Assembly: GCA_964634685.1 (NCBI GenBank)
Contig: CAZWLD010000009.1
Span: 292 to 64,291, forward strand
Source: an uncultured Anaeroplasmatales bacterium
Lineage (GTDB): Bacteria > Bacillota_I > Bacilli_A > Acholeplasmatales > JAEDCM01
Reading direction: 5' to 3'
Length of the DNA stretch: 64,000 bases
Shown here: piece after piece, positions 504-39,754 of the stretch
How positions within the stretch are numbered: position 1 is the stretch's first letter
Layout: every line of letters begins with the position of its first letter
Program-made: the position numbers and the translations under genes
The notes under the pieces: generated by a model
What the model was told of the DNA's origin: nothing
Seen by the model: only the letters and a program-made list of their open reading frames with translations
Databases searched by the model: none

Positions 504-789
504 CAAAAGCCCCAAAATAAGCATTTTTTTACGAATTTATTAGTGCTTTTTGTTTAATTAAGTCTATAAAAAAGCAATTATTCAATAAAATTTCTTTGCA
601 TAAAAATTATACAAAATAACCCCCAAATATGAACATTATTCGAAAAAAAACAAGGCAAATATAAAATAAGTTCTCGATATGATAACGTTATTATAAATTT
701 TTTTTGGTTTTTTCGTTTTAAAAAAATTAGTTTTGATTTATAATATAGATAAAGAAAAAACGATTCTAAAATTAATAAGGAGTATAAAA

Positions 790-2472
790 ATGATTAAATC
801 GAACACTTTAAAAGCATCTGAAATTGCAATTTTTGCTCTTGGTGGTTTAGGTGAGGTCGGAAAAAACACTTATGTTATCGAATACCAAAATCAAATTTTT
901 ATTATTGATGCTGGTATGCTTTTTCCTGATGAGCATTTGCTAGGAGTAGATTATGTTATTCCAGATTATCAATATCTAATTGACAATCAAGAAAAAATTG
1001 TTGGTCTTTTCATAACGCATGGTCATGAGGATCACATCGGGGGAATTCCTTTTCTTCTCAAAAAGGTGAAAATTCCAAAAATTTACGCAGCCGGCGTCAC
1101 TGTTGATCTAATTGAAAACAAGCTTCAGGAATATGATGGTCTAACCCCAACTATCGTCGAATACAAAAGCAACTATAGCTTCAAATTTAAAGGAGTTGAG
1201 GTAACGTTCATTAGAATGAACCATTCAATTCCCGACAGCTTTGCCATTGTTTTTAAAACATCCCTTGGCTATATTATTCATACAGGTGATTTTAAAATTG
1301 ATTTTACGCCAATTGGTCCCGCCGCTGAATATGAGAAGCTAGCTAAGCTTGGAAGCGAAGGTGTTTTATGTCTTCTTGCGGATAGTACCAATGCGATGCT
1401 TGATGGCTTTACAATTAGTGAATCGAAGGTTAGTTCTTCAATCAAGGAGGTTTTCAGCAAAATTGAAAATCGAATTTTAGTTGCAACCTTTGCCTCAAAT
1501 ATCTATCGAATCCAACAAATCGTCGAAGCATCTGTTGCGAATAATCGTAAAATTGCTGTCTTTGGTCGTTCAATGGATAAAGCCATTGAGCTAGGACAAC
1601 AAATCGGTTATATCAAAGCCCCAAAAGGAACATTTATTGATGCGCAGGCTATCAATAACTATCCCGCCAATCAAATAACCATTTTATGTACTGGTTCCCA
1701 GGGCGAGCCCCTAGCCGCTTTATCAAGAGTTGCTTTTGGAACGCATCGTCAAATCAAGCTTATCCCCGGCGATACGGTCATCTTCTCTTCTTCACCAATT
1801 CCTGGAAACTCCGGTGGCGTTAATAGAACCATTAATATGCTCTTCAAAAAGGGCGCAGATGTTATTATCAATAGTCCTTTAACCGATACCCATACTAGTG
1901 GTCATGGTGCAGCAATGGAGCTAAAGCTTCTTCAAAGTCTTGTTAAGCCAAAATATTTTATGCCAATTCATGGCGAACATCGAATGCTAAAAACGCATGC
2001 CGATTTAGCTGTATCCGTTGGCGTAAAAAGAGAGAATACCTTTGTTTTAGATAATGGTGATGTTTTAGTAATCGGTAAGGATAAAGCTCGCATTGCGGGA
2101 AAGGTTCAAGCTGGAGATGTCTATGTTGATGGTAGTGGCATCGGAGATATTGGAAATGTTGTCATCAAGGAACGCAAGCTTTTAAGTGATGATGGTTTAT
2201 TATCCTTAATAATTACAATCAATGCCAAAAAACTAGAATTAGCTATTCCGCCAACAATCGTTTCTCGTGGATTCATCTATATGAAATCAAACGAAGATTT
2301 CACAAATAATTTAATTAAGGCTAGCTCAAATCTAATCAATTCCGAATTAAAAAAGATGAAGGTATTAAATACTGTGTACTTAAAAAATCTCATTGCGGAG
2401 CTATTATCTAAATTAATATATAACTATACAGAAAGAAAGCCAATGATTATTCCAATCATTATGACAGTATAA
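790..2472 (+). CDS. rnj: Ribonuclease J (beta-CASP metallo-beta-lactamase RNase)
   Basis: HGHEDHIGG metal motif, GDFKID, and beta-CASP plus C-terminal domain layout. Start moved from track 733 to ATG 790 (MIKSNTLKASEIAIFALGGLGE), which has AAGGAG 8 nt upstream. Confidence 0.9.
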   Translation: MIKSNTLKASEIAIFALGGLGEVGKNTYVIEYQNQIFIIDAGMLFPDEHLLGVDYVIPDYQYLIDNQEKIVGLFITHGHEDHIGGIPFLLKKVKIPKIYAAGVTVDLIENKLQEYDGLTPTIVEYKSNYSFKFKGVEVTFIRMNHSIPDSFAIVFKTSLGYIIHTGDFKIDFTPIGPAAEYEKLAKLGSEGVLCLLADSTNAMLDGFTISESKVSSSIKEVFSKIENRILVATFASNIYRIQQIVEASVANNRKIAVFGRSMDKAIELGQQIGYIKAPKGTFIDAQAINNYPANQITILCTGSQGEPLAALSRVAFGTHRQIKLIPGDTVIFSSSPIPGNSGGVNRTINMLFKKGADVIINSPLTDTHTSGHGAAMELKLLQSLVKPKYFMPIHGEHRMLKTHADLAVSVGVKRENTFVLDNGDVLVIGKDKARIAGKVQAGDVYVDGSGIGDIGNVVIKERKLLSDDGLLSLIITINAKKLELAIPPTIVSRGFIYMKSNEDFTNNLIKASSNLINSELKKMKVLNTVYLKNLIAELLSKLIYNYTERKPMIIPIIMTV

Positions 2473-2477: not shown

Positions 2478-2507
2478 GCGGATTTATTTATTTAATCCGC
2501 TTTTTTT
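2478..2507. terminator. Bidirectional Rho-independent terminator between convergent rnj and the TIR gene
   Basis: Stem GCGGATT (2478..2484) pairs with AATCCGC (2494..2500). It is flanked by an A7 run upstream and a T7 run downstream. Confidence 0.8.
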
Positions 2508-2532: not shown

Positions 2533-4884
2533 TTAGTACTTATCATCATAAGGAGTATTCTCAACCCCTTCGTCTTGTAGCTTAGTTACCATACGGTCCA
2601 ATCTCGATTTCCACATTTTTTTAAACCATTTTTTCTTTCCGAATATTTTTACAATTGTTGGACTTATTGCATAATATAGCTTTATAAACATTCTTCCATG
2701 CCATGTCTTGTCCAATTTAAAATCGCGAAAACGCCTAAGTGTCCAAACCTCAGGGCAATCATAAGAGCCATAAACACAAGTTGCAATATAGCAACCTGCT
2801 TTCCTATCTGGTTGAGTAGCTTCATATGTTAAGCCATTATAATTATAAACAAATGGATTAACTTCATACTCAACACTACTAGTTGATATTTTATTAACAT
2901 ATGCCCAATCTTTAAATTGTTTTTGGATTTTGTCTCTTTCCCTTTTTTCGTATTCAGAAAATTCATAATAAAAATGTAGTAAAGTATAGGTAGAATCATT
3001 GATTTTATACAAAAGATCGTACCATAAAGTATATGTAAATTTCAAAGTTGAACGGCCAAGGCTAATATCAAGATGGTCATTGATGCAAATAATGTCCTTA
3101 GTATAAATTGTTCTAAAATTTAAACCTTCAATATCAAAAATCACTTTATCTTCATATAAGGTAATAACCGTCTTACGATTTAATATATACCCTCCTGAAA
3201 CAGTGATTTTAGTCAATTCTAAAAATGAAGATTCAGAAATATCATTTCTAGATAACTTAGCCCAGCTTTCTAAAAGAGGTATCGCTACTTTATATTCATT
3301 TTCGGTTACAATTTTTATCTGCATTTTAACCACATTGAAGACTTGTTCACTTATCTCAAAGATTTCCTTTTTGTTAGAAAGTGATTCACCATATAAATCA
3401 ACAAATTGAACTAGGTTTGAAGACATTTCGCAATAAGAAGTGAATTTCGATTCTTTTATATTATAAGCTTCAAATGACACTCGTTTAAAATAATCTCCAA
3501 CAAAATTAAATAAAATGATAGTGTTTTTTTCTAGTCTGTTACAAAATGCATCATATTGTTCTTTTATTGAATCATTTTTCTTTGACATTTCTCTAATAAT
3601 AGGTAATCCTAATTCAGTTACTGGATTTATTGCCTTTTTAACATCCGTTTCTGATAACCCGGCATCAGACAATTTATCAAATTGTAATCTAGACTCGATG
3701 GCATTAATAATGCAATCAGCGAATAGTTTTTGTTCATTTTCGGAGGTTACATTTCCACATATATCAAAGTGACTTCTTTGATAATCACTACTCATTATTA
3801 AAAATAGCCTTCCATAGAAATTGTTGGAATCCTCTTCAAGAATACCATCTCCAAACTTTTTTAAATTAGGGTGTTTTTCACCATAAATAACTATATTATG
3901 AGATTTTAAATACTCTAAACCTTTTTTTGTTAATGATGATATCTTATTAATAATTTGTGTTTCTTCTTCATTCTTTTTATTCTCATTAGGCTTTTTAATG
4001 ATTTTTTTAATTCCTCTTACAACATCATTAATAAACCCAATTTTGCTCATATCCTGTGCTTGTAAATGCGAGAATTCCTCTGGCAATTCGTATGCATCCA
4101 TATCCTTATAGCAAGGTATAAGCATCTTACTATGATCATTTTTCATCATCTTAAGGAATCGAGACCATTCATTTTTTACCCATACAGCATTAAAATATTC
4201 AGGCTTTGTTCCTATAGAAAGCATGACCTTAGCTGAATTTAGCGCTGCAAAAATAATTGGCTCATATGCACTCCCAAGTTTATCCTCAAGAGTAATAGCT
4301 GCATAAAAAACCTTAAATCCTTCATTTGTAAGATTATGGTAAATTTCATTTGCAATCACACTATCTTTTGTTCTATTTCCGCTTGAGTCAGTTTCCTTGT
4401 AACAAATAAATACATCATAAGGCTCTTCGTTTGCAGAAATTGCAAGAATTCCTTTCTGAATTTCATCAATTTGCATTGCTTCCTTTTCATAGATTGTACG
4501 TTGTACAACATCGGCATATTGAAGAGCCTTTTTGTAATAATCATCCGCAACAATTGATTCGTATGATGTTCTATGACATGTAGGTATTCTTTTGTATGTT
4601 TTTGGATCCTCTACATACTCAATTCCAAATTTACAAAGAATAACACCCCAATATGCTTCAGACTCTCTTTCATCGTTTTGTATTATTTTTTCATAAATAG
4701 CTTCTGCTTTGTCAAATTCATTTTTTTGACGTAGTAAATTAGCTCGATTAAAAAGCCCTTGAATATTTTCATCTGTAGTACTTGGTAATGTTTGTTGGGT
4801 ACCACAGTATTCACATTCAACAACCTTTTCTCCTTCTGAAACTGAAAGCTCACCGCCACACATTTTACATTTATAAATAGCCAT
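2533..4884 (-). CDS. Zinc-ribbon / TPR-like / TIR domain protein with Cys-motif C-terminal module (TIR-A)
   Basis: 783 aa. aa1-30 form a CxxC..CxxC ribbon (CKMCGG..CEYCGT). aa45-130 are helical and TPR-like (AYWGVILCKFGIEYVEDP..PTCHR). aa155-295 form a TIR fold (YDVFICYKETD ... AVWVKNEWSRFL; Glu239 codon at 4168..4170). The C-terminal 87 aa read GCYIATCVYGSYDCPEVWTLRRFRD... The start lies 15 nt after the upstream gene and has a GGAAGAGGG RBS. Confidence 0.75.
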   Translation of the reverse strand: MAIYKCKMCGGELSVSEGEKVVECEYCGTQQTLPSTTDENIQGLFNRANLLRQKNEFDKAEAIYEKIIQNDERESEAYWGVILCKFGIEYVEDPKTYKRIPTCHRTSYESIVADDYYKKALQYADVVQRTIYEKEAMQIDEIQKGILAISANEEPYDVFICYKETDSSGNRTKDSVIANEIYHNLTNEGFKVFYAAITLEDKLGSAYEPIIFAALNSAKVMLSIGTKPEYFNAVWVKNEWSRFLKMMKNDHSKMLIPCYKDMDAYELPEEFSHLQAQDMSKIGFINDVVRGIKKIIKKPNENKKNEEETQIINKISSLTKKGLEYLKSHNIVIYGEKHPNLKKFGDGILEEDSNNFYGRLFLIMSSDYQRSHFDICGNVTSENEQKLFADCIINAIESRLQFDKLSDAGLSETDVKKAINPVTELGLPIIREMSKKNDSIKEQYDAFCNRLEKNTIILFNFVGDYFKRVSFEAYNIKESKFTSYCEMSSNLVQFVDLYGESLSNKKEIFEISEQVFNVVKMQIKIVTENEYKVAIPLLESWAKLSRNDISESSFLELTKITVSGGYILNRKTVITLYEDKVIFDIEGLNFRTIYTKDIICINDHLDISLGRSTLKFTYTLWYDLLYKINDSTYTLLHFYYEFSEYEKRERDKIQKQFKDWAYVNKISTSSVEYEVNPFVYNYNGLTYEATQPDRKAGCYIATCVYGSYDCPEVWTLRRFRDFKLDKTWHGRMFIKLYYAISPTIVKIFGKKKWFKKMWKSRLDRMVTKLQDEGVENTPYDDKY

Positions 4885-4899
4885 ATTTTTCCCTCTTCC

Positions 4900-5742
4900 T
4901 TAATTAATTTTGTTATTTAAATACTTACTATATTTTTCTCGTAAGCTCCAATTTAATTTTTCTTTATATTTACTTTTAATCAATTTATATTTCATTCGAA
5001 TATCTTCTTGTGAAATAGGATTATCTTCACTACAATTAGGTGACAACACTACTTTTGGATCATTTTTTTCACAATCAATTGCTAAATCAATATAGCATTC
5101 ATCATCTAATAATTCTAATTGCTCCTGGCTCAAATTAGCTTTATCAATTTCTATAACTAATCGGCATTCATTTTCATAAGCCCATCCATATAGTTTTGCA
5201 TAATAATCAAGTTTCCCATTTTGTATATCAAAAGGGAAATCATTAATAGAAGCATTTTTTAATCCATATATGGATTTCTTTAGTATTAAATTCTTATTAT
5301 CATCACCAACATATATAACATCAATCATTTCAATTCGGAATTTTCCCTTAGGAATATTTAAAACAAAAGTATCATCGCGTGAAATATTAATTTCATTTGT
5401 TTTGGTAATCAAGTCTTTTATTATAGACTTAGTAAATGTAAGCATAAAGCCCTCTTCTGAAGGATCAGAATATAACATCCACATAGCGATATTTTCACTT
5501 TTTGAATAAGTAAAAGATTTAACAAATCGAATTTTACCATCATTACACAGATTATCACGATCAATTATATCGTTCCAACTAGTTCCTCTTGTTAATCTAA
5601 TACTCGATTTTTTAAGCGTTTCAACAATTGATTTTCTATCCCCATAAAATGAATACTGGTCGTGATCTATCCCTTTTTTCTTCAATTCATTATACAAATC
5701 ATCCTTCGACTTAATACCCTTAAAAAAATCTTCTCTTGGCAT
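4900..5742 (-). CDS. DUF2971-like protein
   Basis: 280 aa. The motifs NIAMWMLYS and YGWAYENECRLVI match my memory of the DUF2971 signature (MW..Y and E.E.R). The ORF is 12 nt downstream of the 4TM gene. Confidence 0.55.
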   Translation of the reverse strand: MPREDFFKGIKSKDDLYNELKKKGIDHDQYSFYGDRKSIVETLKKSSIRLTRGTSWNDIIDRDNLCNDGKIRFVKSFTYSKSENIAMWMLYSDPSEEGFMLTFTKSIIKDLITKTNEINISRDDTFVLNIPKGKFRIEMIDVIYVGDDNKNLILKKSIYGLKNASINDFPFDIQNGKLDYYAKLYGWAYENECRLVIEIDKANLSQEQLELLDDECYIDLAIDCEKNDPKVVLSPNCSEDNPISQEDIRMKYKLIKSKYKEKLNWSLREKYSKYLNNKIN

Positions 5743-5754
5743 ATACTATTACCT

Positions 5755-6474
5755 CTATTTTTGCTTAGAAGCTTTTGCTTTTTGGTTTCTTTCCTTCAAT
5801 AAAATTATTAACTCATCAATATCACTAAAAATTGAATCAATAATACCAGTTGATATATTTCTTTTTAGTAATTCACAATTTTTATAAATCTCTTCCTCTA
5901 TTTCTCCCAATGAATCATTTGATACCGGATCACTGTATTTTACTTCTTCAACTAGTAATCCTAGCTTTATACGAATAGATTCTTCTGTCACCTTATTTGC
6001 TAATGTTTCTAAATCAACTCTCAAATCCGAAATAAATTTGGTAGTATTTGGTAAAGAATTTTCAATTTTAATTATTTCCTGCTTGTAAGAATCCGTCATA
6101 ATCAAACCAATTGAAGTTAATCCAATCAAAATTGACTCAATGACAATAATAATCCAATAATCTACTAAAACAAAGGAATTAAGAGTAAATAGGGCAATGC
6201 AAAGAACCATTTGAATTAACATGTATAAATATCCTAATCGGATAATTGGCCAACCATATATTTTGCTTTTGTATGTGTTTGTCTCATTCAAACCATAATG
6301 TGCAATAAATGGTTGAGAAATGATACTCAACAAGCCACAAATCCAAAGAATCCAAAAGGAAGCCTCTGATTTATGAGCAAAAGGAATAGCAAGAGCTAAA
6401 ATATTATAAACAACTCCAATAATAATTACGATAGCAATATATTTCTTAAAATTTTTATTCATTTTCTTATCCAT
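5755..6474 (-). CDS. Four-TM membrane protein with cytoplasmic helical C-terminal domain
   Basis: 239 aa with four hydrophobic helices in aa12-130, followed by a charged helical tail (..IRIKLGLLVEEVKYSDPVSNDSLGEIEEEIYKN..). The start lies 3 nt after the SPFH gene stop; the alternative ATG at 6462 has a better RBS spacing. Confidence 0.6.
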   Translation of the reverse strand: MDKKMNKNFKKYIAIVIIIGVVYNILALAIPFAHKSEASFWILWICGLLSIISQPFIAHYGLNETNTYKSKIYGWPIIRLGYLYMLIQMVLCIALFTLNSFVLVDYWIIIVIESILIGLTSIGLIMTDSYKQEIIKIENSLPNTTKFISDLRVDLETLANKVTEESIRIKLGLLVEEVKYSDPVSNDSLGEIEEEIYKNCELLKRNISTGIIDSIFSDIDELIILLKERNQKAKASKQK

Positions 6475-6477
6475 CCT

Positions 6478-8208
6478 TTACTCAGGCTTCTTGGTACCAC
6501 AATTGGGGCAAAAATTTGTTAATATATTATTCTGTCCACAAGAGCAATTCCAACCTTTTGACTCTTCAGGCTTCTTTGAACCGCAATTTGGGCAAAAACG
6601 TGTCATTATGTTATTTTGCCCACAAGAGCAATTCCAACCTTTTGACTCTTCCGGTTTCTTCGAACCACAATTTGGACAAAAATTAGTCACTATGTTACTT
6701 TGACCACATTGGCAATTCCAGCCAAAAGAAGATGAGCCAATTTGCGATGCTGAATTAATAATAGGATTAATTGTATCTTTTGCCATTCCCATAACACTGC
6801 CAACAGCACCCATAGTAACACCTAACCCAACAACATCTCCAAGAATGCTAGAGGCAAAACCTGCAGCACCTCCTTGAGGCATATTCTCCATCGCAGAAAG
6901 TGATACTTGTCGTCTCGTTTCATCTTGATATGTATATCCCTTCATTTGCATTTCCTGGGCCTCTGCTTGTGCTTTTAATCGATAGGCTTCAGCCTTTGCT
7001 TGAGCAGCAATTATTTCCTCCTGAGCTCCTGTTTGTGCTTCAACTACTCTTCTTTGCTGCTCAGCCAAGGCTACATTTTTCTTTATTTGCTCATTACGAA
7101 CTAATAAATACTGTTCAGCATACTGTTCCTTCATTTTTCTAAAATTTGGATCATCATCTGGTGTAACAACATGTAAAATATAAAATTCTGGTATATGCAT
7201 ACCATAATCCTCAAGAGTTTTATTGATTTCTATCTTCATAGAATTAGACAATGTTTCTAAATGCTCATCTACTTCTAAAATATTGATACTATTTTCCTTA
7301 ATATGTTTAGCCAAAATGCTCTTTACTTTTGAAATAACTAAAGCCTTAAATTTGCCAGATACAACTTTGATATCATAAGGATTATTAATTATATCTGTAT
7401 TTCTCAATTCAGAAGTAGTTCCAACTAGCTTTAATAGTAGTTTTCGAGAATTTACTACCCTAATATTGAACTCTCCATAGGCACCAAGTTCAATAGATAA
7501 CCCTGATATTGGATCAAACATTCTAACTTTAGTATCTGTTCCCCATTTAATTCCCGTTTGAGTGACCATATTAATGAAGTAAACTTCTGAGTGAAATGCA
7601 ACTTCACTATCAAATGGCAATTTATATAAGTTTTGCAATAAAGGCAATTTTTCTGTTGCTAATGTATATCTTCCTGCCCCAAAACAATCAAGCGCTTGCC
7701 CATCACGGAAAAATATTGCTTCTTGGGATTCATGGACGATTAATTGAGAGCCAAGATTAAAATCTTCAATAGGATGCTTCCATACTAATACATTATTGGG
7801 TCCCTCATATTTTATAACGCTTGCAAATCCTTTTTCCTTTATAGATTCTCTTGCAATAACCTCTTGGACATCCAAATGCTCTTTACAGAGGGGACAAACA
7901 TAGCTCTTTGCAGATTTATCTACTTGTAGTTTACATGAACAAGAAGGACAATTTATGTATACATAGTTCATCCTACTTTCCGATGTAACAATTTTATTTT
8001 TACATACAGGGCAATTTGCAGAATCTCCTTTAGCTTGATCGTACATTACCGAATTACCACAATGTGGACAATCTTTTATTGCGAAGCGATCTTTCCTAAC
8101 ATCAATGACTTTTCCACATTTACATTCTAAATATTTATTTGAAAAAAAACCAATAGATGCCTCCTGATAAGATCCGCATTTAGGACATTCAATAATAAAT
8201 TTAGCCAT
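6478..8208 (-). CDS. SPFH/band-7 domain protein with three N-terminal and three C-terminal zinc ribbons (SPFH-A, YdjI/COG4260-like)
   Basis: 576 aa. There are three N-terminal CxxC..CxxC pairs (CPKCGS..CKCGK, CPHCGN..CPVCKN, CPSCSC..CPLCKE). The SPFH core spans about aa125-370 (7099..7836). An A/Q/E-rich coiled coil follows, then the Gly-rich hydrophobic segment GGAAGFASSILGDVVGLGVTMGAVGSVMGMA, then 3 x GWNCxCGQxNIxTxFCPNCGxKKPE. Confidence 0.75.
   Translation of the reverse strand: MAKFIIECPKCGSYQEASIGFFSNKYLECKCGKVIDVRKDRFAIKDCPHCGNSVMYDQAKGDSANCPVCKNKIVTSESRMNYVYINCPSCSCKLQVDKSAKSYVCPLCKEHLDVQEVIARESIKEKGFASVIKYEGPNNVLVWKHPIEDFNLGSQLIVHESQEAIFFRDGQALDCFGAGRYTLATEKLPLLQNLYKLPFDSEVAFHSEVYFINMVTQTGIKWGTDTKVRMFDPISGLSIELGAYGEFNIRVVNSRKLLLKLVGTTSELRNTDIINNPYDIKVVSGKFKALVISKVKSILAKHIKENSINILEVDEHLETLSNSMKIEINKTLEDYGMHIPEFYILHVVTPDDDPNFRKMKEQYAEQYLLVRNEQIKKNVALAEQQRRVVEAQTGAQEEIIAAQAKAEAYRLKAQAEAQEMQMKGYTYQDETRRQVSLSAMENMPQGGAAGFASSILGDVVGLGVTMGAVGSVMGMAKDTINPIINSASQIGSSSFGWNCQCGQSNIVTNFCPNCGSKKPEESKGWNCSCGQNNIMTRFCPNCGSKKPEESKGWNCSCGQNNILTNFCPNCGTKKPE
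6482..6723 (-). repeat. Three tandem 84-bp in-frame repeats encoding zinc fingers
   Basis: The units 6482..6565, 6566..6649 and 6650..6723 are nearly identical at DNA level. Each encodes GWNC(S/Q)CGQ(N/S)NI.T.FCPNCG(S/T)KKPE(ESK). Confidence 0.9.
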
Positions 8209-8282
8209 ATATGATACTTCCTTTCTTTATTAATAATTGCAGTATTTTACAAAATATAAGATAATATTATATAGTTTATTTC

Positions 8283-8309
8283 ATTATACCCCCCCCCGAC
8301 CTTTGTCAA
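8283..8309 (-). promoter_or_regulatory. Promoter of the SPFH-4TM-DUF2971-TIR operon with a homopolymeric G9 spacer
   Basis: Minus strand reads TTGACA (8304..8309) AAGGTC GGGGGGGGG TATAAT (8283..8288). Both hexamers are perfect consensus but the spacer is only 15 nt. The AGGAAG RBS and the ATG at 8208 lie about 70 nt downstream. Confidence 0.7.
8289..8297. repeat. C9/G9 homopolymeric tract
   Basis: Nine consecutive C on the plus strand, inside the promoter spacer. This is the longest G/C run I could find by eye in this AT-rich window; the others are 5 nt or shorter. Confidence 0.95.
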
Positions 8310-8454: not shown

Positions 8455-8485
8455 AAAAAAAATAGGCTTCACAAAATGTGAAGAC
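8455..8485 (-). terminator. Rho-independent terminator downstream of the ATPase gene
   Basis: Minus strand reads GTCTTCACA TTT TGTGAAGCC followed by TATTTTTTTT. The core stem is 7 bp. It separates ORF 8602..9612 from the downstream operon promoter. Confidence 0.65.
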
Positions 8486-8601: not shown

Positions 8602-9612
8602 TTAAATCGAGGCAAAATAAAGGCTATTTTTCCCCGCATTTTTTATATTAATCAAACCTTGATTAAAAAGTCTTTTTTTATAAACCTGAAATTTTGAATT
8701 ATTCAATCCTGTCTCAATTAAAATATCTTTCACGTCAGCTGAATTAACCATCGCAAACATAATTTTTTGTTCAACGGATGATAATGATTCCCATATTTTT
8801 AAATAGACATTATTCTCTAAGGCTTGATCATAATCGCTTAGTATCTTTTTTGTCAATTTCTTTTCATTATTTTTAAATAAAATATTTCCAAGAAGTTGAT
8901 AGGCATAGGCATAGCCATTAGTGGCCTTGGCAAGGATTAAGGCATCTTTTTCAGAAATATTGAATATATCCTGATAGGATGAACATATCGATCTCATATT
9001 CAATGCCTCAAGCATTACTTTCTTTGTTCTCAATAAAAATGTTAATCCATTTGTATTTTCCAACTTAGAAATATTCTCATATAAGCCTGTCATAATAAAA
9101 AACACATCATATCCTTCACGTAAAAAGCTTTGAAATGAATAAACAAAGCTCTTAACAATATTGCTAGATGCAATGTCATCGACGGTGATTAAAACTCTCT
9201 TTTTCTTTTTTTTCAAATATTTGAACATTACATCCAAAAGACTATTAACGTTACTTAATGGATTATCACCACTTATTTTCAAAGATAATCCCGAAAAAGA
9301 AAAATTAAATTCTGCCTTCAGAAAAAGTTTTTTTAATCTTCCTTGATCATATATTTTCGCCGCAAGCTGTTCATGCATATCTGAAAAAGGATTTAAATCA
9401 ACAGTTATCCATTCTTCTTCATTAGAAATTTGTTTTTTTATTTTTGAAAGCATAACTGTTTTTCCAGTTTCACAAGGACCGATAATTGCTATTGCGCGTG
9501 CCTCAGGAATATCACTATTAAGTGTTGATATAATTTCGTCAAATTCGTTGCGTTCAATAAAAAGATGTGGTTCCTCACCAAAACCAATATTAAATGGATT
9601 TACCTTTGTCAT
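8602..9612 (-). CDS. AAA/P-loop ATPase (archaeal-ATPase/ORC-like) with probable C-terminal winged helix
   Basis: 336 aa. Walker A is GPCETGKT and the Walker B-like motif is VLITVDDI. The C-terminal part (SSVEQKIMFAMV..) looks wHTH-like. AAGGAG RBS lies 10 nt upstream. Confidence 0.55.
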   Translation of the reverse strand: MTKVNPFNIGFGEEPHLFIERNEFDEIISTLNSDIPEARAIAIIGPCETGKTVMLSKIKKQISNEEEWITVDLNPFSDMHEQLAAKIYDQGRLKKLFLKAEFNFSFSGLSLKISGDNPLSNVNSLLDVMFKYLKKKKKRVLITVDDIASSNIVKSFVYSFQSFLREGYDVFFIMTGLYENISKLENTNGLTFLLRTKKVMLEALNMRSICSSYQDIFNISEKDALILAKATNGYAYAYQLLGNILFKNNEKKLTKKILSDYDQALENNVYLKIWESLSSVEQKIMFAMVNSADVKDILIETGLNNSKFQVYKKRLFNQGLINIKNAGKNSLYFASI

Positions 9613-9745: not shown

Positions 9746-10849
9746 CTAATCGCAGTATATCGTTAAACCCTGATAAAATAATTGTTTATGAACATCTTTA
9801 GAAGAAACATCATACTTTACCTTTTCACCATCTGAATTTATATAGTACCATCCGGTTTTATTCTCAAACTCCAAAACAGGATTACAATTTCCATTTGCAG
9901 AAATCCCAAAAGGTTCAATTACTTTAATATTTTTAGGAATGATAAAAGTTTCTTCTTTATAAGCTACAGTCAAGGCACTATCCCCAATTATTTCTATTTC
10001 TTCTAAAATAACGGTATTTCGACATCCTGCAATTATCTTGTTAGTTTTTGTTTCTATGATGGCATTACAGTTTTCCCTTGAATCATAAACATCATTATCT
10101 TCATCCACCTGAATCTTTTCTAATGAGCCACATAAGTGAAATATACCAGCATCAATTTTTTTTACTGATTTAGGAATAAATATTTCAGTTAATGGCGTAC
10201 TGTCAAAGCAGCCATATCCAATAGATTCTAGATTATTAGAAAGCTTAACTGAAATTAAATTATAACACCGACCAAATGAGCCTTCGCCAAGAGATTTAAC
10301 ACTATCTGGTATTATTACATAATCTAATTTCGACCAGAAAAAAGCATAATCCTCAATTGTATGAACACTATTAGGTATATCAATTTCTGTTATTTCTGAT
10401 AAATAGAAAGCACCATATCCAATTATTTCAATATCATCAGGTATTATTGTCCCAACACATCCAGCAACCAAGGTATTAGTATCAGTTTCAACAATGGCAT
10501 TACAATTATTTCTTGAATCATATTTTTTATTATCCTTCGATACTTCCACTTTTCTTAGATTTTTATTTCTACCAAAAATACCACCATAAACACTTTCAAT
10601 ATTTTCTGAAATATAAATACTTTCCACTGTAGAAGAAATAGCATATTCGCCAATTGCCGTTACAGGCAAATCATTATACGTACTAGGAATAACTATTTTC
10701 TTTAGATTATTATCATTCAACCCAGTAAAAGTATAGCTTTCTCCATCTTCATTTAGTTCAAATTTATATTCAGCATATTCTTCCTTTTTACTACAAGAGG
10801 ATAACAATATCACAAAACAAAAAATAATAGCCACAAAAATTTTTTTCAT
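9746..10849 (-). CDS. BspA-type leucine-rich-repeat lipoprotein
   Basis: Signal peptide plus lipobox (ILLSSC). Repeated IP.SV..I...AF..C..L..I units are typical of BspA/LRR_5 repeats. It is a paralogue of the adjacent gene. Confidence 0.7.
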   Translation of the reverse strand: MKKIFVAIIFCFVILLSSCSKKEEYAEYKFELNEDGESYTFTGLNDNNLKKIVIPSTYNDLPVTAIGEYAISSTVESIYISENIESVYGGIFGRNKNLRKVEVSKDNKKYDSRNNCNAIVETDTNTLVAGCVGTIIPDDIEIIGYGAFYLSEITEIDIPNSVHTIEDYAFFWSKLDYVIIPDSVKSLGEGSFGRCYNLISVKLSNNLESIGYGCFDSTPLTEIFIPKSVKKIDAGIFHLCGSLEKIQVDEDNDVYDSRENCNAIIETKTNKIIAGCRNTVILEEIEIIGDSALTVAYKEETFIIPKNIKVIEPFGISANGNCNPVLEFENKTGWYYINSDGEKVKYDVSSKDVHKQLFYQGLTIYCD

Positions 10850-10915
10850 ACTTGCTCACTCCTATTTCTTTTAAAACATAAAAATTAAATTGCATTAAGA
10901 TTTCTTTCTTGTCAA

Positions 10916-12025
10916 TTAGTTTTCACAATATAGAGTAAAATCTTGGTGCCAAAAAGTCTTATATACTTCTTCTTCACTGACATCAAAATCCACCTTTTCA
11001 TTATTTGAATTAAAATAATACCAACCGATATTATTTTCGAATTTCACAACTGGATTAGCTGAACCACCACTTATAATGCCATATGGCTCAATTACTTTAA
11101 TATTGCTTGGAATAATAAAGGTTTCCGTGATTTGTGCGATAGAAAACGCATAGGTTCCAATAGTATCAATAAAATCAAAAATAATGCTATTGCGACATCC
11201 GGCAATGATCTTATTAGCTTTTGTTTCTATAATTGCATTACAATTATCCCGTGAATCATAAACCTCATTTTCTTCATCTACTTCAATTTTATTTAGCTTT
11301 GAACAAAAGCCAAAAGCGCCTCCACCTATCTTATTCACAGTCTTTGGAATATATATTTCCGATATAGCTGTGTCATAAAAACATTTTTCACCGATAGATT
11401 GAAGGTTGTTAGTAAGCTTAACCATAGTTAAATCACGACACTCCGCAAATGCTTTATTACCAATAGCTAAAACATTATCCGGAATAACTAAATAATCTAA
11501 ATTAGAATGATAAAAAGCATAATCTTCGATTGTATGAACGCTATTAGGAATATCTATTTCTGTTATGTTGATAAACTGAAAAGCACCTAATCCAATTTTT
11601 TCAATATCATTAGGGATTTTTGTTGTCTTACAGCCTGCAATCAAGGTATTAGTCTCGGTAAGAATAATAGCATTACAATCATCTCTTGAATCAAATTTAT
11701 TATTATCTTTAGCTACTTCAATTTTTTTTAAATCATCACACCCAGCAAAAATATTGCTTAAAAAAGTGTTAATATTATCAGAAATAAAGACGCTTTCTAC
11801 AGAATTATAGAAAAATGCATATTCACCGATTTTGGTAACTGGCTTATTTTTGTAAGTATTAGGAATAACTACATCATTAGTTACATTAGAATCAAAGCCT
11901 TCGAAGGAATAACTCATTCCGTCCTCATTTAGTTCAAATTTGAAACCAGGATATTCTTCCTTTTTACTACAAGCGGATAACATTATCATAAAGCATAAAA
12001 TACTAGCCAAAATAATTTTTTTCAT
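10916..12025 (-). CDS. BspA-type leucine-rich-repeat lipoprotein
   Basis: Signal peptide plus lipobox (IMLSAC) and the same repeat architecture as its neighbour. The start overlaps the permease stop (ATGA at 12022..12025). Confidence 0.7.
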   Translation of the reverse strand: MKKIILASILCFMIMLSACSKKEEYPGFKFELNEDGMSYSFEGFDSNVTNDVVIPNTYKNKPVTKIGEYAFFYNSVESVFISDNINTFLSNIFAGCDDLKKIEVAKDNNKFDSRDDCNAIILTETNTLIAGCKTTKIPNDIEKIGLGAFQFINITEIDIPNSVHTIEDYAFYHSNLDYLVIPDNVLAIGNKAFAECRDLTMVKLTNNLQSIGEKCFYDTAISEIYIPKTVNKIGGGAFGFCSKLNKIEVDEENEVYDSRDNCNAIIETKANKIIAGCRNSIIFDFIDTIGTYAFSIAQITETFIIPSNIKVIEPYGIISGGSANPVVKFENNIGWYYFNSNNEKVDFDVSEEEVYKTFWHQDFTLYCEN

Positions 12026-13185
12026 GCTTTCTCCCCTCTATTTCTTTTCAAAACATAAAAATTAATCAAGCCAATAACTGCCAAATATACAAGGAAAACT
12101 AAGATAATGATGATTGAATACTCAGATGTGCTTAGCTTCAATGACATTTGTTCCTCAACGAGGATATGTTTATTTAATAAATCAATCATCACGATTGATA
12201 AAATTGTTCCTAAAACAAAGGAAAAGAGATAAATATAGAGATTTTCTAGTTGAAATGTCCATTGACATTTTTTACTTGAATAGCCTAAAGACCTTAGCAT
12301 TTTAAAATACTTATATTGATCATTAAACTTAATCAAAATTGAATTAAAAAGATTAACTACACACAACAAAACAATCGCCAAAATAATAATAAAAATGATC
12401 GTATTCACAATTTCAAATTGAGCGATAATAAAATGGTTTTTTTGATATGATTCGTAGCTATTAACATGATTCTCTATGTTATGAGTATCAAAATATTCAA
12501 AATATGGCTCAAGCAACTCATATTTATTTAGATAAATATATGAAGTCATCGCATTAGATGAATCAATTCGGATAAACTCATTGTTTAAATCTTTGGAAAA
12601 AATTATGTATGAAGAATAATTACTATCTCCTAAAACAAAATTATTAAAACAATCATCTTTTACAATGCAAGCAATTTTACAATCAATAAAAGCATATTCA
12701 CTATCATCTAAGCTTAATCTTTTTCCTAGTAAATCCGTCATAGAGCATTCTTGAGTCACAGCCATTAGCTTAGCTAAACGATAATTTATAATTATTTCAT
12801 CCTTTTCTTTAGGTATTTCTCCATACATCAATCCTTCTTTTAAGCCTAAATATTCTGGTAACTTATTAAAATCATATATTAGCATCTTTGTACTTCTTGT
12901 GAAGCCTAAGTCCACATTATCTAAATAAAAGTGCTTTGAGTTATGATAATTAGAACTTCCATAACAAGTTATTAATTCAACATTTGAGGTTAATATTGGT
13001 ATTTCCTCGGTTGTTTTAGCCTTGATGTAATATTCACCTTGGTTAATACTTCCAATATCTTCATAGAGATTTTTATATCCTGTTTTAATAAAGAAAAAGG
13101 ATAAGGTCGCAAAAACAATAGCCAAAAAGATAAACATTATTTTAAAAGATCTTTTTTTATAACGGATAATATTCTTTAAAACCAT
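12022..13185 (-). CDS. ABC transporter permease, FtsX/MacB type
   Basis: 387 aa: one N-terminal TM helix, a large extracytoplasmic domain, then a C-terminal cluster of three TM helices. A TAATG overlap joins it to the upstream permease. Confidence 0.65.
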   Translation of the reverse strand: MVLKNIIRYKKRSFKIMFIFLAIVFATLSFFFIKTGYKNLYEDIGSINQGEYYIKAKTTEEIPILTSNVELITCYGSSNYHNSKHFYLDNVDLGFTRSTKMLIYDFNKLPEYLGLKEGLMYGEIPKEKDEIIINYRLAKLMAVTQECSMTDLLGKRLSLDDSEYAFIDCKIACIVKDDCFNNFVLGDSNYSSYIIFSKDLNNEFIRIDSSNAMTSYIYLNKYELLEPYFEYFDTHNIENHVNSYESYQKNHFIIAQFEIVNTIIFIIILAIVLLCVVNLFNSILIKFNDQYKYFKMLRSLGYSSKKCQWTFQLENLYIYLFSFVLGTILSIVMIDLLNKHILVEEQMSLKLSTSEYSIIIILVFLVYLAVIGLINFYVLKRNRGEKA

Positions 13186-14288
13186 TACTCATCACCTCTT
13201 AATTCTAAAACCAAATTCTTATGTGTTTTTTTCATAAGAGTATATAAAATCATCGCTAATAAAATCACAACAGTAATTAAGATAACCCACCAAAATGACA
13301 AATAAATCGGATCGATTTTGACTATTCTATTGAGTTTACTTCGAACCCATATATTTATAAGTAATGATATTAGATAGCCAATTATACTTGAAGAAATAAA
13401 TACAGCTGAGAATATCGCTATAAATAATTTTTTATCAATGCTTATTCCAAGGGAATGATTAATTAAATAAAATTTTTTGCGTTGTAAAAAATACAAATTA
13501 TTAAAATTAAACACACTAAAAGTCAAAAAGATTAAAAGAATGATTAAAACAGCCTTTAAGATTCGGTTAGCTAAAGATATGAAGAAAAAAATACCAAAAA
13601 TAACACCACCATCATCTGCAGCTAATTTTGAGGAAACATAAAAAGGAATTAAATCATCGCCTACATCAAACAAATCATAGCTTGAAGGTAAAATGAATTC
13701 AGTGTAATATTCATCTTTAGTATTCTCAAAACATTCATAAGGAACAACCACTGTACGTCCAATATCTTCTCGGAAAGTCCCCACCAAAGTTAGTTTATAA
13801 TCATTACCATATACAGATAGAATAATTTCTTCTCCTATAGAAAGACCATATTTATTCACCAGACCTTCCGTCATAAATATCGATTTTTCTTTGTCAAATC
13901 CTGAATACTTTTCTAATATATTTTTACTTGCTTTAAAGCCAAACGAGCTATAGCAATTATAATCAGTATATTCAAAATTAGAAAAACAAATAATAGTGTC
14001 TACATTTTTTCCATTAATTAAGATCGGATTATTTTCGATAATTATATCCACAATTAGCGGATATTTTGATGCAAGCTTGTCCACAAGCTTTTTATCAATA
14101 TTTTGGATTTGATATAGCATCGGGCTATTATATTTATCGATGTATTTATCGAAAATATGATAATAATTTTGAATAAAAGCGGAAATTGAAAAAATAAGGG
14201 CAAGGACAATTGATAAAGTAATAAACAATTTAATTAAGAAATACCTGCAAAGCTTAAATTCTTTAATTAATATTTTGAAGATAGTCAT
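13185..14288 (-). CDS. ABC transporter permease, FtsX/MacB type
   Basis: 367 aa with the same 1+3 TM topology. The start overlaps the ATPase gene by 26 nt. Confidence 0.65.
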   Translation of the reverse strand: MTIFKILIKEFKLCRYFLIKLFITLSIVLALIFSISAFIQNYYHIFDKYIDKYNSPMLYQIQNIDKKLVDKLASKYPLIVDIIIENNPILINGKNVDTIICFSNFEYTDYNCYSSFGFKASKNILEKYSGFDKEKSIFMTEGLVNKYGLSIGEEIILSVYGNDYKLTLVGTFREDIGRTVVVPYECFENTKDEYYTEFILPSSYDLFDVGDDLIPFYVSSKLAADDGGVIFGIFFFISLANRILKAVLIILLIFLTFSVFNFNNLYFLQRKKFYLINHSLGISIDKKLFIAIFSAVFISSSIIGYLISLLINIWVRSKLNRIVKIDPIYLSFWWVILITVVILLAMILYTLMKKTHKNLVLELRGDE

Positions 14289-14940
14289 TGATTATTTCTC
14301 CATCCGTTATTTCAATTACTCTATCCGCATATTTCAAATGCTCTTGATTATGAGTTACTAAAATAACACACTTTCCTTCATCCGCAAGCTTTCTTAATAG
14401 TTCCATTACAATTTCCCCGTTTTTCACATCTAAATTTCCACATGGCTCATCCGCAAATAAAATTGATGGATTGTTTACGATTGCCCTCGAAATCGCAACT
14501 CTTTGCGTTTCTCCACCCGAAAGAGTAGTAGCGATTTTATTTTGAAAATCTGTCATACCGACCTTCTCTAAAGCTTCATAAACGCGTTTTTTTACTTCTT
14601 CCTTCTTTAGCTTAGATAAAGCCAAGGGTAAAGCTACATTTTCATAAACGGTATATCTTGGCTCTAGGAAAAAGGATTGGAAAACAAACCCGATTTTTTG
14701 ATTCCTGATTTGATTTATTTCCTTTTCCTTCAAATCATTAATCAAAATACCATCAATATAGATTTCCCCACTTGTGGGAATATCTAAGGTCCCCATTAAA
14801 TTTAAAAGAGTTGTTTTTCCACTTCCTGAACGTCCAATAATAACATTTAAACCTTTTTCAAATTTAACATTAATGTCTTTTAAAACAACCCGTTCTTGAT
14901 ATTGCTTCGATACATTCTTAACCTCTATCATATTCATCAC
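14263..14940 (-). CDS. ABC transporter ATP-binding protein (MacB/LolD-like)
   Basis: Walker A GRSGSGKTT, Q-loop, signature LSGGETQR, Walker B ILFADEP and H-loop VTHN. Confidence 0.9.
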   Translation of the reverse strand: MMNMIEVKNVSKQYQERVVLKDINVKFEKGLNVIIGRSGSGKTTLLNLMGTLDIPTSGEIYIDGILINDLKEKEINQIRNQKIGFVFQSFFLEPRYTVYENVALPLALSKLKKEEVKKRVYEALEKVGMTDFQNKIATTLSGGETQRVAISRAIVNNPSILFADEPCGNLDVKNGEIVMELLRKLADEGKCVILVTHNQEHLKYADRVIEITDGEIINDYLQNIN

Positions 14941-37741: not shown

Positions 37742-38328
37742 TTTTTCGAGAAAATATATTTAGCAGCCTCAACTACGCCAAGCTTTGACCAACCGCTTCC
37801 ATCATAAAATTCACAAACCACGTCACCATTAGGGGCCGTTTCGATGCGAGCACAGGACGTAAACTTGATGGTTTTTCCATTAATTAATAAAAGCTGCGGA
37901 GTGGTTTCTCGATCAATTCCGTAATTTGCGGCAAAGGTTTTACCATCATCACTTCCCGCATCAATTAAATATATTTTTTTAATTCCGGCTTTTTTGGCAT
38001 ATTTATTAATAGGAGTTATACTTTCTTGACAGCTTTTGCATGTTGGCTTGCTGAAGAAAACATAAAAATCCTCAGAGGAAGCCGCAAGCTTTTTGATATC
38101 ACTATAGGTCGCTTCCTCATAAACATTACCGATAGGTAAAAATGATGATGAATATTTTCTTGAAACACTATCACCCCAGAAATAGAGAGCAAAGGTTCCA
38201 ACAGCTAGTAAGCCCACTAAAATTAAACTAATATTCACAATTGTTCTTCTCTTAAGAAAAATTCTTGGAGAAGATTTTTTTCCTGAAGAATTTTCTTTAT
38301 TTTCCACGATAATCCTCCCTTGAAACAT
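37738..38328 (-). CDS. Membrane-anchored thioredoxin-like protein
   Basis: One TM helix (aa31-52) and the CxxC motif FFSKPTCKSCQE in a thioredoxin-sized domain. Its stop codon overlaps the convergent murE stop. Confidence 0.5.
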   Translation of the reverse strand: MFQGRIIVENKENSSGKKSSPRIFLKRRTIVNISLILVGLLAVGTFALYFWGDSVSRKYSSSFLPIGNVYEEATYSDIKKLAASSEDFYVFFSKPTCKSCQESITPINKYAKKAGIKKIYLIDAGSDDGKTFAANYGIDRETTPQLLLINGKTIKFTSCARIETAPNGDVVCEFYDGSGWSKLGVVEAAKYIFSKN

Positions 38329-39730
38329 TATAAACTATACTACACTTATATCCTAAGCCATCCTCACGATTAAAGGCTTCATCAAAGCTTGATGCCTCAA
38401 AATAAAGGGTAGTCTTTGATTGATTGGTTGAACAGCCATAGAAGGCTTTTTCACCAATTGTTGTGACAGTACTAGGAATATAGGCTTTTTCCAATAAAAT
38501 ACATAGCATAAAGGCCCCATTACCAATTTCTTCAACCGATGCTAAATCTACTTCCGTCAAAGAAGTCGTTAAAAAAGCTTTTTCTCCGATTTTTTTAACG
38601 GAATCAGGTATTTCAACCCGACTAAGTGAACGAGCCGCAAAGAAAGCATAATCGCTTATTTCAGTAATTCCCTCAGGAATTACATATTGATGTCCACTAC
38701 CAACATATTTTAACAAGGTATTATCTTTAATAATCACATCATCCTTGACATCTGATTTCTTAAATAGATAGCTTGTATATTTAGAAAACAAACTGTTTGT
38801 GGAATAATTATCATAATAATCATCCCCAACTAAAATCGCACCACACGAAAAGCCAGATAATTTTCCTTTCATTTTCGGCACATCGCCCAAAAACTCAACC
38901 CATTGAAGGAATGACATTGTTAAGCTGTATTGGCCAATTGTAGTAACAGACGCAGGAATCGTTAGATTCGATAAATTGGTATTATAAGCAAAATAGTCTC
39001 CGATTTCCTCTAAAGAATTAGATAATTGTAAATTCGTTAAATAAACACAATCCTTAAAGGCTGAATCGCCAATTGTAATAACGGAATTAGGTAAAACTAC
39101 ACTATAAACCTTTGAGCCGGCAAAAGCATAGGGTTCAATATTTAATAAAGTATTAGGAAGGCCAAATTCACCATCATATGAAGAAGGATATTGATAAAGA
39201 ACGGTTTGATTCTTATTATACAATAGGCCATCCATTTCTGAATAGTATTTGTTGTTTTTGTCAACAACAAAGGCTTTATTGAAGGTTAGATTTCTAAAGG
39301 CATCAGTACCAATACTTTCAACATTTTTTCCAATAATGACCTTTTCTAAAAGACTACATCCATAGAAGGCACGATCGCCAATTGTGACTACTCCACTATT
39401 TTTTACATAGGAAACCTCACGTAAAGCTCTTGATTCTTCAAAGGCTGATTCACCAATCGTCTTCACAGAGTCAGGAATAATAACCTTAACTAATTTGGAG
39501 TTTTGAAAGGCACTAGCGCCAATTTCTTCAACATAGTATCCATCAAGCTTTTCGGGAATACGAATATCATTAATATTTGTGTCCTTTAATCCTGTAACAA
39601 TGGCCACACCGTTTTTAATTGAATAATTAAAATATTCCTTGCTTGTTTCGGCCATTAGCTTTTCGCCACAAGCACATAAGGTAAGCGAAAAGAACAAAAG
39701 AAATAATAATATTTTTTTCAAATAAAACAC
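38297..39730 (-). CDS. BspA-type leucine-rich-repeat lipoprotein
   Basis: Signal peptide with a Cys lipobox (SLTLCAC), followed by many IP.SV..IG..AF repeats. Confidence 0.7.
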   Translation of the reverse strand: MFYLKKILLFLLFFSLTLCACGEKLMAETSKEYFNYSIKNGVAIVTGLKDTNINDIRIPEKLDGYYVEEIGASAFQNSKLVKVIIPDSVKTIGESAFEESRALREVSYVKNSGVVTIGDRAFYGCSLLEKVIIGKNVESIGTDAFRNLTFNKAFVVDKNNKYYSEMDGLLYNKNQTVLYQYPSSYDGEFGLPNTLLNIEPYAFAGSKVYSVVLPNSVITIGDSAFKDCVYLTNLQLSNSLEEIGDYFAYNTNLSNLTIPASVTTIGQYSLTMSFLQWVEFLGDVPKMKGKLSGFSCGAILVGDDYYDNYSTNSLFSKYTSYLFKKSDVKDDVIIKDNTLLKYVGSGHQYVIPEGITEISDYAFFAARSLSRVEIPDSVKKIGEKAFLTTSLTEVDLASVEEIGNGAFMLCILLEKAYIPSTVTTIGEKAFYGCSTNQSKTTLYFEASSFDEAFNREDGLGYKCSIVYNVSREDYRGK

Positions 39731-39754
39731 CTCTTATTCTATTTTACCATAACT

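Follow-up and report, generated by a model that had tools for sequence, protein, structure and literature searches.

A conserved SPFH, four-transmembrane and TIR gene unit of gut and rumen Bacillota as a candidate membrane-based conflict system

The stretch of DNA analysed here, 64,000 nucleotides (nt) from contig CAZWLD010000009.1 of an uncultured Anaeroplasmatales bacterium (hereafter the window, to whose full length all coordinates refer), carries a four-gene operon whose genes we designate g1 to g4 in order of transcription. They encode an SPFH/Band_7 protein, a protein with four transmembrane (TM) helices (4TM), a DUF2971 protein, and a protein that joins a Zn-ribbon/TPR module to a TIR domain. 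Our firmest conclusion is that the SPFH, 4TM and Zn-ribbon/TPR/TIR genes constitute a conserved, mobile functional unit, one that would most likely serve as a membrane-based defence or danger-sensing device. We tentatively read the operon as one representative of a membrane-associated TIR system that is widespread among gut and rumen Bacillota and would act as a platform-based conflict system, a reading that we consider plausible, with somewhat less than an even chance of being right. The system, apparently unnamed and undescribed, proved to be much more widespread than an initial annotation of the window had assumed, and the receptor-like topology of most of its members was unexpected. The operon, its control elements and the gene that converges on it are as follows, with protein lengths in amino acids (aa) and the basis of each assignment in brackets.

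6478-8208, minus strand: g1, SPFH protein, 576 aa (list of open reading frames (ORFs) and Pfam)
5755-6474, minus strand: g2, 4TM protein, 239 aa (ORF list and AlphaFold2 model)
4900-5742, minus strand: g3, DUF2971 protein, 280 aa (ORF list and Pfam)
2533-4884, minus strand: g4, Zn-ribbon/TPR/TIR protein, 783 aa (ORF list, Pfam, NCBIfam and model)
8283..8309, minus strand: operon promoter (read from sequence)
2478..2507, no single strand assigned: bidirectional intrinsic terminator (read from sequence)
8455..8485, minus strand: upstream intrinsic terminator (terminator scan and sequence)
733-2472, plus strand: RNase J gene (ORF list)

The four genes form a real operon with its own promoter, flanked by terminators. 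The initial annotation had described four same-strand ORFs separated by 3, 12 and 15 nt, and the ORF coordinates bear this out for the g1/g2, g2/g3 and g3/g4 gaps, respectively. It had also given the operon a promoter of its own and a terminator on either side, and all three elements were located. The promoter, approximately 75 nt 5' of the g1 ATG, has two perfect hexamers, a -35 TTGACA at 8309-8304 and a -10 TATAAT at 8288-8283, separated by a spacer of 15 nt that includes a run of nine G residues (G9) at 8297-8289; it was missed by our consensus promoter scan because that scan allows only spacers of 16-18 nt. The upstream terminator, a stem at 8483-8467 followed by a T-run, was found by the terminator scan; it closes the gene for a P-loop ATPase (8602-9612) and insulates the operon from this upstream gene. 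The downstream hairpin, AAAAAAAGCGGATT-loop-AATCCGCTTTTTTT at ~2478-2507, is common to g4 and the convergent RNase J gene and is visible in the sequence, having escaped the scan because its loop is longer than the 8-nt maximum that the scan permits.

The recurrence of this arrangement was assessed by scanning one-genome-per-species contigs with an alignment of g1. These contigs contained at least 575 relatives of this long SPFH family; the 80 loci sampled from them, together with those found earlier, gave 81 in which the SPFH gene is complete. In 73 of the 81, a g2 homologue recognised by a family hidden Markov model lies directly 3' of the SPFH gene, the distance from the SPFH stop to the 4TM start being mostly -4 to +3 nt, and g2 is an obligate partner of the SPFH gene. 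Directly adjoining the SPFH-4TM pair on one side or the other, 71 of the 81 loci carry between one and five genes for Zn-ribbon/TPR/TIR proteins on the same strand, and several of the ten loci that lack an adjoining TIR gene are contig ends. The conserved unit thus consists of a Zn-ribbon-rich SPFH protein, a 4TM protein and one to five Zn-ribbon/TPR/TIR proteins, and since the gene set recurs in many species its association is more than chance. The initial annotation had left it to be seen whether all four families co-occur beyond this genome: the SPFH/4TM/TIR triad does so widely, but DUF2971 joins it in only a handful of loci.

Most hosts belong to Oscillospiraceae, Ruminococcus, Lachnospiraceae and Acutalibacteraceae, with further copies in Bacilli (Coprobacillus, 81% identity), Acholeplasmatales and two Chloroflexi metagenome-assembled genomes (MAGs). 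The copies in loci L008, L049 and L075 come from MAGs labelled "Bacteroidales" or Chloroflexi (Flexilinea), which reflects either mis-binning or a horizontal transfer that started in Bacillota. Exactly the four genes of the window are found together again in L002/L009 (GCA_045598145.1) and L087/L088. In L087 the cassette sits between a segment running from isoleucyl-tRNA synthetase to a short-chain dehydrogenase upstream and DUF3137 and Fic genes downstream; this chromosomal context differs from that of the window, and therefore the cassette moves as a unit.

Around the core there are accessory genes, including one for a small ribbon-helix-helix (RHH) regulator upstream in 13 loci, SIR2_2 proteins in about 5 loci, Zn-ribbon/TPR/RCC1 proteins without a TIR domain, and two small families of unknown function. 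A TIR-less Zn-ribbon/TPR/RCC1 protein of 520-560 aa is encoded between the SPFH and 4TM genes of L028, L032 and L058, and it shares its N-terminal tag with the TIR proteins. The same triad also occurs with a second SPFH subfamily, of 392 aa and without N-terminal Zn ribbons, on metagenome contigs (L090-L093), where the gene order is RHH, SPFH, TIR (with a C-terminal CFI-box, see below) and 4TM. Three further proteins are encoded 3' of the 4TM gene in the short-SPFH locus, each starting with a similar Zn ribbon (192 aa with a TM segment, 461 aa with TPR, and 789 aa with a β-propeller), and this locus adjoins a resolvase and a type I restriction-modification (R-M) system.

The protein encoded by g1 had been described as an SPFH protein with six zinc ribbons and a glycine-zipper-like segment, and each element was recovered. 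A Band_7_1 match (PF13421) at aa 149-352, with 128 bits against a Pfam cutoff of 24 (E 5e-37), places the protein in the SPFH superfamily. It possesses twelve CxxC/CxC pairs (at 8, 29, 47, 66, 87, 105, 499, 511, 527, 539, 555 and 567), and therefore six Zn ribbons, three of them N-terminal (aa 1-110) and three C-terminal (aa 497-576). When 20 homologues, 57-87% identical across their whole length, were aligned, 11 of the 12 pairs were invariant, and C501 of the pair at 499 was retained in at least 90%. C-terminal to the SPFH domain there follow an Ala/Glu/Gln-rich helix of coiled-coil type (aa ~365-430) and a hydrophobic, GxxxG-rich stretch (aa 446-480). The family comprises at least 7936 clusters, conserved over the full length at 54-87% identity. 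The C-terminal Zn ribbons (window 6481-6720) are tandem copies of the pattern W-x-C-x-C-G-x3-N-x5-C-P-x-C-G-x-K-K-P, which we take to resemble the RanBP2-type zinc-finger consensus, and individual homologues have anything from three to about seven of them.

For g2, the expectation of a 4TM protein with a helical tail agrees with an AlphaFold2 model of good confidence (mean predicted local distance difference test score, pLDDT, 82), in which four TM helices are followed by a four-helix tail. A K-rich N-terminus points to an N-in orientation, which would leave this tail in the cytoplasm, and two motifs of the tail, SDPxS and RN, are invariant across the family. A fold search of the Protein Data Bank (PDB) with the model returned nothing meaningful. 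A word-index search had returned only 13 clusters, and the notion of a rare family was rejected when a profile search of 1.84 billion representatives found 3763 clusters at 50% identity, almost all of 225-240 aa.

The g4 protein starts with a module of Zn ribbon, TPR and β-hairpin (aa 1-150), followed by the TIR domain (aa ~155-295; TIR_2, 41 bits against a Pfam cutoff of 28, E 3e-10), a middle region unique to g4 (aa ~320-690) and a C-terminal CFI-box (aa 698-766, nt 2587-2793; NCBIfam, E 2e-20), for which a literature search found no paper. The TIR domain contains the motifs DVFICY at aa 157 and WVKNEW at aa 235, the latter including Glu239 (codon 4168-4170). With a model of aa 1-330 (pLDDT 77) as the query, the top PDB folds found by Foldseek were TIR domains, namely BtTir (7uxr), flax L6, RPS4 and AbTir, and in the model Glu239 lies near the start of the helix after the third strand. 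In phmmer alignments W235 and E239 of g4 align with the W...E of BtTir (NWTEYE) and of the TIR domain of a Toll-like receptor (CWCQYE), the Toll-like receptor TIR domain being the best PDB sequence match. We take the aligned Glu of BtTir to be the catalytic Glu of NADase TIR domains, and the equivalent motif of SARM1 presumably reads WVHKE. A TIR fold with Glu239 at the catalytic position, as originally assigned, is therefore what both the fold search and the alignment to BtTir return. When a profile of whole g4 was compared with PDB sequences, the only matches were to TPR/WD40 repeats and were dismissed as spurious.

By its fold and its catalytic-position Glu the TIR domain of g4 would be of the NAD-cleaving type, with a predicted NADase activity. 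With the TIR NADases SARM1, AbTir/BtTir, TIR-APAZ and TIR-STING it shares the fold and the W-x-x-x-E motif; unlike theirs, its activity is a prediction, and the isolated TIR domain of a clear member of the same TIR family, EUBELI_RS07950 of E. eligens, gave the product "None" in vitro (PMC9092222, supplementary file 3). Metagenomic relatives are labelled "inactive" in that gut-microbiome TIR survey by their proximity to EUBELI_RS07950 (PMC9092222). We relied on supplementary file 3 alone, whose rows are internally consistent; the assignments in file 2, in the copy used here, are untrustworthy, and an apparent family link to TcpF of E. faecalis, an NADase with ADP-ribose as its product (PMC9092222, supplementary file 2), was rejected since the domain-sequence column of that copy is out of register with the columns for protein and best hit.

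Homologues of g4 number at least 8000, and their similarity is confined to the first ~300 residues, at 56-92% identity. The TIR protein of L087, for example, is 92% identical to g4 through residue 321 and unrelated beyond it. The C-termini of the homologues include LRR_5, TPR, ankyrin, MORN, RCC1, DUF6273, EF-Tu domain 2 and L7/L12 C-terminal domains. A CFI-box is present in 45 of the 120 closest global homologues of g4, and CFI-box homologues accompany the short SPFH subfamily.

The TIR proteins associated with SPFH genes in the related loci, 107 in all, provided a set in which the fate of the motifs and the membrane topology could be followed. FICYKE, YEP and WVKNEW are retained in at least 95% of them. 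The initial annotation had allowed for a TIR domain that lacks the catalytic pocket; at the level of residues, at least 95% of the 107 proteins keep the catalytic-position Glu. The N-terminal module hardly varies from protein to protein, but the C-termini are swapped between them. Strongly hydrophobic TM segments occur in 74 of the 107, single in 52 proteins and two to four in number in the other 22. Among the 52 single-TM proteins, 42 continue for 188-1333 residues past the TM segment and 10 are tail-anchored. Lys and Arg are commoner in the 15 residues before the TM segment than in the 15 after it in 51 of these 52 proteins (means 6.0 and 1.8), and therefore, by the positive-inside rule, the Zn-ribbon/TPR/TIR part would be cytoplasmic and the C-terminus outside (N-in/C-out). 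The presumed ectodomains of the 42 contain RCC1-like propellers in 24 cases, DUF6273 in 10, LRR_5 in 4 and Flg_new in 4. Most linked TIR proteins are thus predicted to be membrane-anchored, many of them N-in/C-out with ectodomains.

The layout of ectodomain, single TM segment and cytosolic TIR domain is found in 42 of the 107 linked proteins and not in g4, which has no TM segment (its Kyte-Doolittle hydropathy peaks at 1.15). With its TM-less sequence, unique middle region and CFI-box, g4 is atypical among the SPFH-linked TIR proteins.

The same layout in the related loci recalls animal Toll-like receptors, and LRR ectodomains occur in a minority of the proteins. The differences are that the order is inverted, with the TIR domain N-terminal, that the ectodomains are mostly RCC1 propellers or DUF6273, that the TIR domain here keeps the NADase-type Glu, and that g4 itself is TM-less. 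We see no evidence for common descent of the receptor architectures of Toll-like receptors and of these bacterial proteins. TIR-based immunity is common to animals, plants and bacteria, and to our knowledge all characterised bacterial TIR systems sense infection intracellularly. A more specific proposal, which we regard as possible though somewhat unlikely, is that gut Bacillota have a large family of single-pass TIR receptors with an extracellular RCC1-propeller, DUF6273 or LRR domain, which, organised by an SPFH cage and the 4TM protein, sense a threat such as phage contact on the cell surface or beyond it and respond by cleaving NAD+. If true, the logic of Toll-like receptors would have a counterpart in prokaryotes, and an SPFH scaffold would for the first time have an immune role in bacteria.

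The third gene of the operon had been annotated as DUF2971-type, in agreement with a Pfam match above the cutoff (PF11185, 33.8 bits against 22) and with an ExE motif (YENECR at aa 190, ExE being aa 190-192). The DUF2971 family, for which the ExE motif has been defined, is predicted to consist of DarT/AbiGi-like ADP-ribosyltransferases (PMC12522546), and g3 is likewise predicted to be such an enzyme. A standalone DUF2971 protein, Aristaios, confers validated phage resistance of the abortive-infection type (PMC11381338). DUF2971 with the ExE motif is what g3 has in common with Aristaios, from lactococcal plasmids, and with the PADLOC candidate PDC-S31; unlike them, g3 sits in a four-gene operon, has no relatives among plasmid-borne genes at E <= 1e-3, and has no match in PADLOC, PDC-S31 models included, at E <= 0.1. 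Orthologues of g3 were found only in L002/L009, L006, L087/L088, L016 and L067, and L007 carries a divergent DUF2971 gene that matches PDC-S31 with an E of 1e-22. Given that DUF2971 is present in just a handful of loci, g3 is an accessory gene outside the conserved core.

The spacer of the operon promoter carries a further feature. The orthologous promoter in L087/L088 (L087 ~9909-9937, as read from the sequence) has ten G residues where that of the window (8283-8309) has nine, and the SPFH promoter of L002 (~545-580) has at the same spacer position a TA repeat of about 10-12 units. In L052 a GACA repeat, with about 15 units, is found some 200 nt 5' of the SPFH gene. No simple repeat was present in the 215 other upstream regions in the loci, the repeats being confined to the clade of the window, L002 and L052. 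Slipped-strand phase variation classically leaves such a pattern, in which repeats at one promoter position differ in kind and vary in length among relatives, and this suggests that the spacer repeat in the clade of the window is a candidate phase-variable switch. A phase-variable promoter suggests in turn a costly system that is toggled at the level of the population, which would be relevant to phage-host dynamics in the gut.

A mechanism that would unite these features can be sketched as follows. The g1 protein may oligomerise at the membrane and enclose g2 in an attached SPFH ring or cage, in the manner of HflK/C, stomatin and flotillin around their clients. The TIR proteins could dock on this SPFH-4TM platform through their invariant Zn-ribbon/TPR module, and a trigger recognised by the variable domains, be it phage contact or entry or damage to the envelope, would gather the TIR domains. 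So assembled, these would cleave NAD+, leading through depletion or the production of a signal to growth arrest or abortive infection, with g2 as a possible membrane effector and g3 as a possible additional NAD-consuming effector; slippage in the promoter repeat would toggle the costly system on and off. We favour direct docking over purely diffusible signalling because the N-terminal module of the TIR proteins is invariant, because the N-terminal Zn-ribbon tag is also present on TIR-less accessory proteins, and because the SPFH protein itself holds many Zn ribbons.

SPFH proteins are described as forming cages that enclose membrane clients. With the cages of HflK/C-FtsH, stomatin and its channel, and flotillin, the present system shares an SPFH domain followed by a long helix of coiled-coil type, and a tightly linked membrane protein; the many Zn ribbons of g1 and its TIR partners are without counterpart there, and a cage for g1 is putative.

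Searches of PADLOC, NCBIfam and PHROGs with g1-g4 matched no named system, and a literature search found no paper linking SPFH with TIR or Thoeris. The initial annotation knew of no named defence system with this gene set, and we likewise found neither a PADLOC model that matches it nor a paper that describes it. SPFH, Band 7 and DUF2971 all go unmentioned in a 2025 catalogue that sets out 29 Thoeris types, both in the text and in the supplements.

Several features speak for a conflict system. They are the synteny kept across Clostridia, Bacilli, Acholeplasmatales and Chloroflexi MAGs and with a second SPFH subfamily, the close spacing of the SPFH and 4TM genes, the retained TIR motifs and NADase-like fold, the modular and often membrane-anchored C-termini, the changed chromosomal context in L087, the recombinases and PADLOC-listed defence genes among the flanking genes, the predicted NAD-using accessory enzymes SIR2_2 and DUF2971, the precedents of Aristaios, of SPFH cages and of YdjI/SamI, and the promoter repeats. 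Several observations weigh against it. The g4 protein lacks both a TM segment and a recognisable sensor domain, and the isolated TIR domain of the family member EUBELI_RS07950 is inactive in vitro (PMC9092222). The SPFH protein and the TIR N-terminal module are very highly conserved across orders, which is unusual for arms-race genes. The 150 flanking genes are a mix of housekeeping genes, recombinases (four resolvases and three integrases) and PADLOC-listed defence genes (three AriA, MADS proteins, PDC-S01, two AbiLi, LeoA, JetB and a reverse transcriptase); defence genes amount to ~15 of the 150, a suggestive figure that is nonetheless an estimate from per-family counts, is qualitative and lacks a genome-wide control, and many flanks are housekeeping. 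The window's own locus is also surrounded by housekeeping genes. Searches with g1 in phage, plasmid and IMG/VR collections matched only distant SPFH proteins, so that the system is essentially absent there, and a phage- or plasmid-borne origin was rejected on this ground.

Given these points, it was reasonable to consider that the unit has no role in immunity, and serves as a module of envelope or surface signalling or homeostasis, comparable to Psp/SamGHI, in which the TIR domain would be an assembly or regulatory part and the ectodomains would sense environment, host or neighbours. Such a role would fit an identity of 55-90% of the SPFH protein and the TIR N-terminal module across orders, the housekeeping genes that flank many loci including the window, the inactive TIR domain of the tested family member, the absence of the system from phages and plasmids, and the nature of LRR_5, Flg_new and RCC1 as typical surface-protein modules. 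In the PspA-YdjGHI (SamGHI) system of B. subtilis, two membrane proteins, one of them with a Zn ribbon, recruit the Band_7_1 protein YdjI/SamI into a membrane stress complex. The two systems are alike in having a Band_7_1 SPFH protein, Zn ribbons and a co-encoded, dedicated membrane protein; here, in contrast, the Zn ribbons are fused to g1, the membrane partner belongs to an apparently distinct 4TM family, and TIR proteins are part of the unit. PspA is encoded neither by the four operon genes nor among the top families of the 150 flanking genes, and this absence beside the system also speaks against a Psp-like module. Further, at least 95% of copies retain the catalytic-position Glu, the accessory genes include NAD consumers familiar from defence (SIR2_2 and DUF2971), the cassette is mobile and patchily distributed with recombinase and R-M neighbours, and the TIR paralogues have expanded with domain swapping. 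On balance we judge a non-immune role to be unlikely.

A similar standing, in our estimation improbable without being far-fetched, belongs to the proposal that the system works like Thoeris, with diversified TIR sensors that make an NAD-derived messenger and an SPFH-4TM pair that, as a signal-activated membrane effector, breaches the membrane. In this proposal the signal would be bound either by the Zn ribbons of g1 or by the g2 tail, where the SDPxS and RN motifs lie. Thoeris loci can pair one ThsA with several ThsB genes, and the loci described here also have one conserved partner and several divergent TIR paralogues each. Thoeris, including the newly proposed types V-XI, resembles the present system further in its TIR proteins with a catalytic-position Glu, in the membrane proteins that are common among its predicted effectors, and in the occasional association of SIR2 genes, and the invariant cytoplasmic motif of g2 would suit a signal-binding site. 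On the other hand, Pfam detects no known effector or signal-binding domain in g1-g3 (for g1 and g2, none of SLOG, Macro, STING, SAVED and the like), the partner here being an SPFH scaffold with a 4TM protein. The TIR proteins, unlike those of Thoeris, carry the invariant Zn-ribbon/TPR module and long, variable and often presumably extracellular C-termini, and the extreme conservation of that module, also on TIR-less proteins, suits protein docking better than a diffusible signal. The PADLOC models for ThsA and ThsB do not match any of g1-g4, and the NCBIfam model ThcB4 reaches 20 bits against a cutoff of 220.

The initial annotation proposed that the operon could couple the sensing of membrane perturbation to TIR activity. 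A model along these lines, in which SPFH-4TM senses the perturbation (phage DNA injection, a holin or envelope damage) and the TIR protein is purely an NAD-depleting effector, draws on the fact that TIR domains deplete NAD as effectors in other systems. It leaves unexplained the swapped, often presumably extracellular C-termini of the TIR proteins and the multiple TIR paralogues of each locus, and we consider it quite unlikely. That an SPFH-4TM housekeeping pair merely adjoins independent DUF2971 and standalone TIR defence genes is highly improbable, for although DUF2971 alone can defend and standalone TIR proteins exist, same-strand genes of one TIR family flank the pair in 71 of 81 loci and also accompany a second SPFH subfamily, and the four genes lie 3-15 nt apart and move together, a synteny that contradicts chance.

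If the platform-based conflict system that we favour is borne out, it would represent a new way to organise TIR signalling in hundreds of gut and rumen species, through an SPFH scaffold and membrane-anchored, partly surface-exposed TIR proteins. It would also assign a concrete role to a large and enigmatic class of bacterial SPFH proteins, and would bear on the origin of TIR receptor architectures and on the role of the abundant TIR genes of the gut microbiome.

Other genes of the window deserve mention. The gene upstream of the operon (8602-9612, minus strand) encodes a 336-aa P-loop ATPase with matches to KAP_NTPase and ATPase_2; it matches the PADLOC model mad8 weakly (E 4e-5), and strong matches to mad8 come from two genes that flank related loci. 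The window also contains, at 38297-50086 on the minus strand, another neighbourhood of SPFH and TIR genes, divergent from the first, with the following genes.

48983-50086, minus strand: Band_7_1 protein, 367 aa, with a C-terminal double Zn ribbon
48569-48970, minus strand: single-TM protein, 133 aa
46363-48486, minus strand: double-Zn-ribbon and LRR_5 protein
43524-45737, minus strand: LRR_5 lipoprotein
39853-43428, minus strand: 1191-aa protein with a C-terminal multi-TM region (Zn-ribbon/TPR/TIR profile, E 7e-32; motifs DIFIS and WVRNEW)
38297-39730, minus strand: second LRR_5 lipoprotein

Two paralogous LRR_5 (BspA-type) lipoproteins are also encoded in the region 9746-14940, at 9746-10849 and 10916-12025, and they are followed in the same region by genes for two multi-TM permease-like proteins and an ABC-type ATPase. 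The LRR_5 domain of these window lipoproteins is also one of the ectodomain types of the TIR proteins in related loci.

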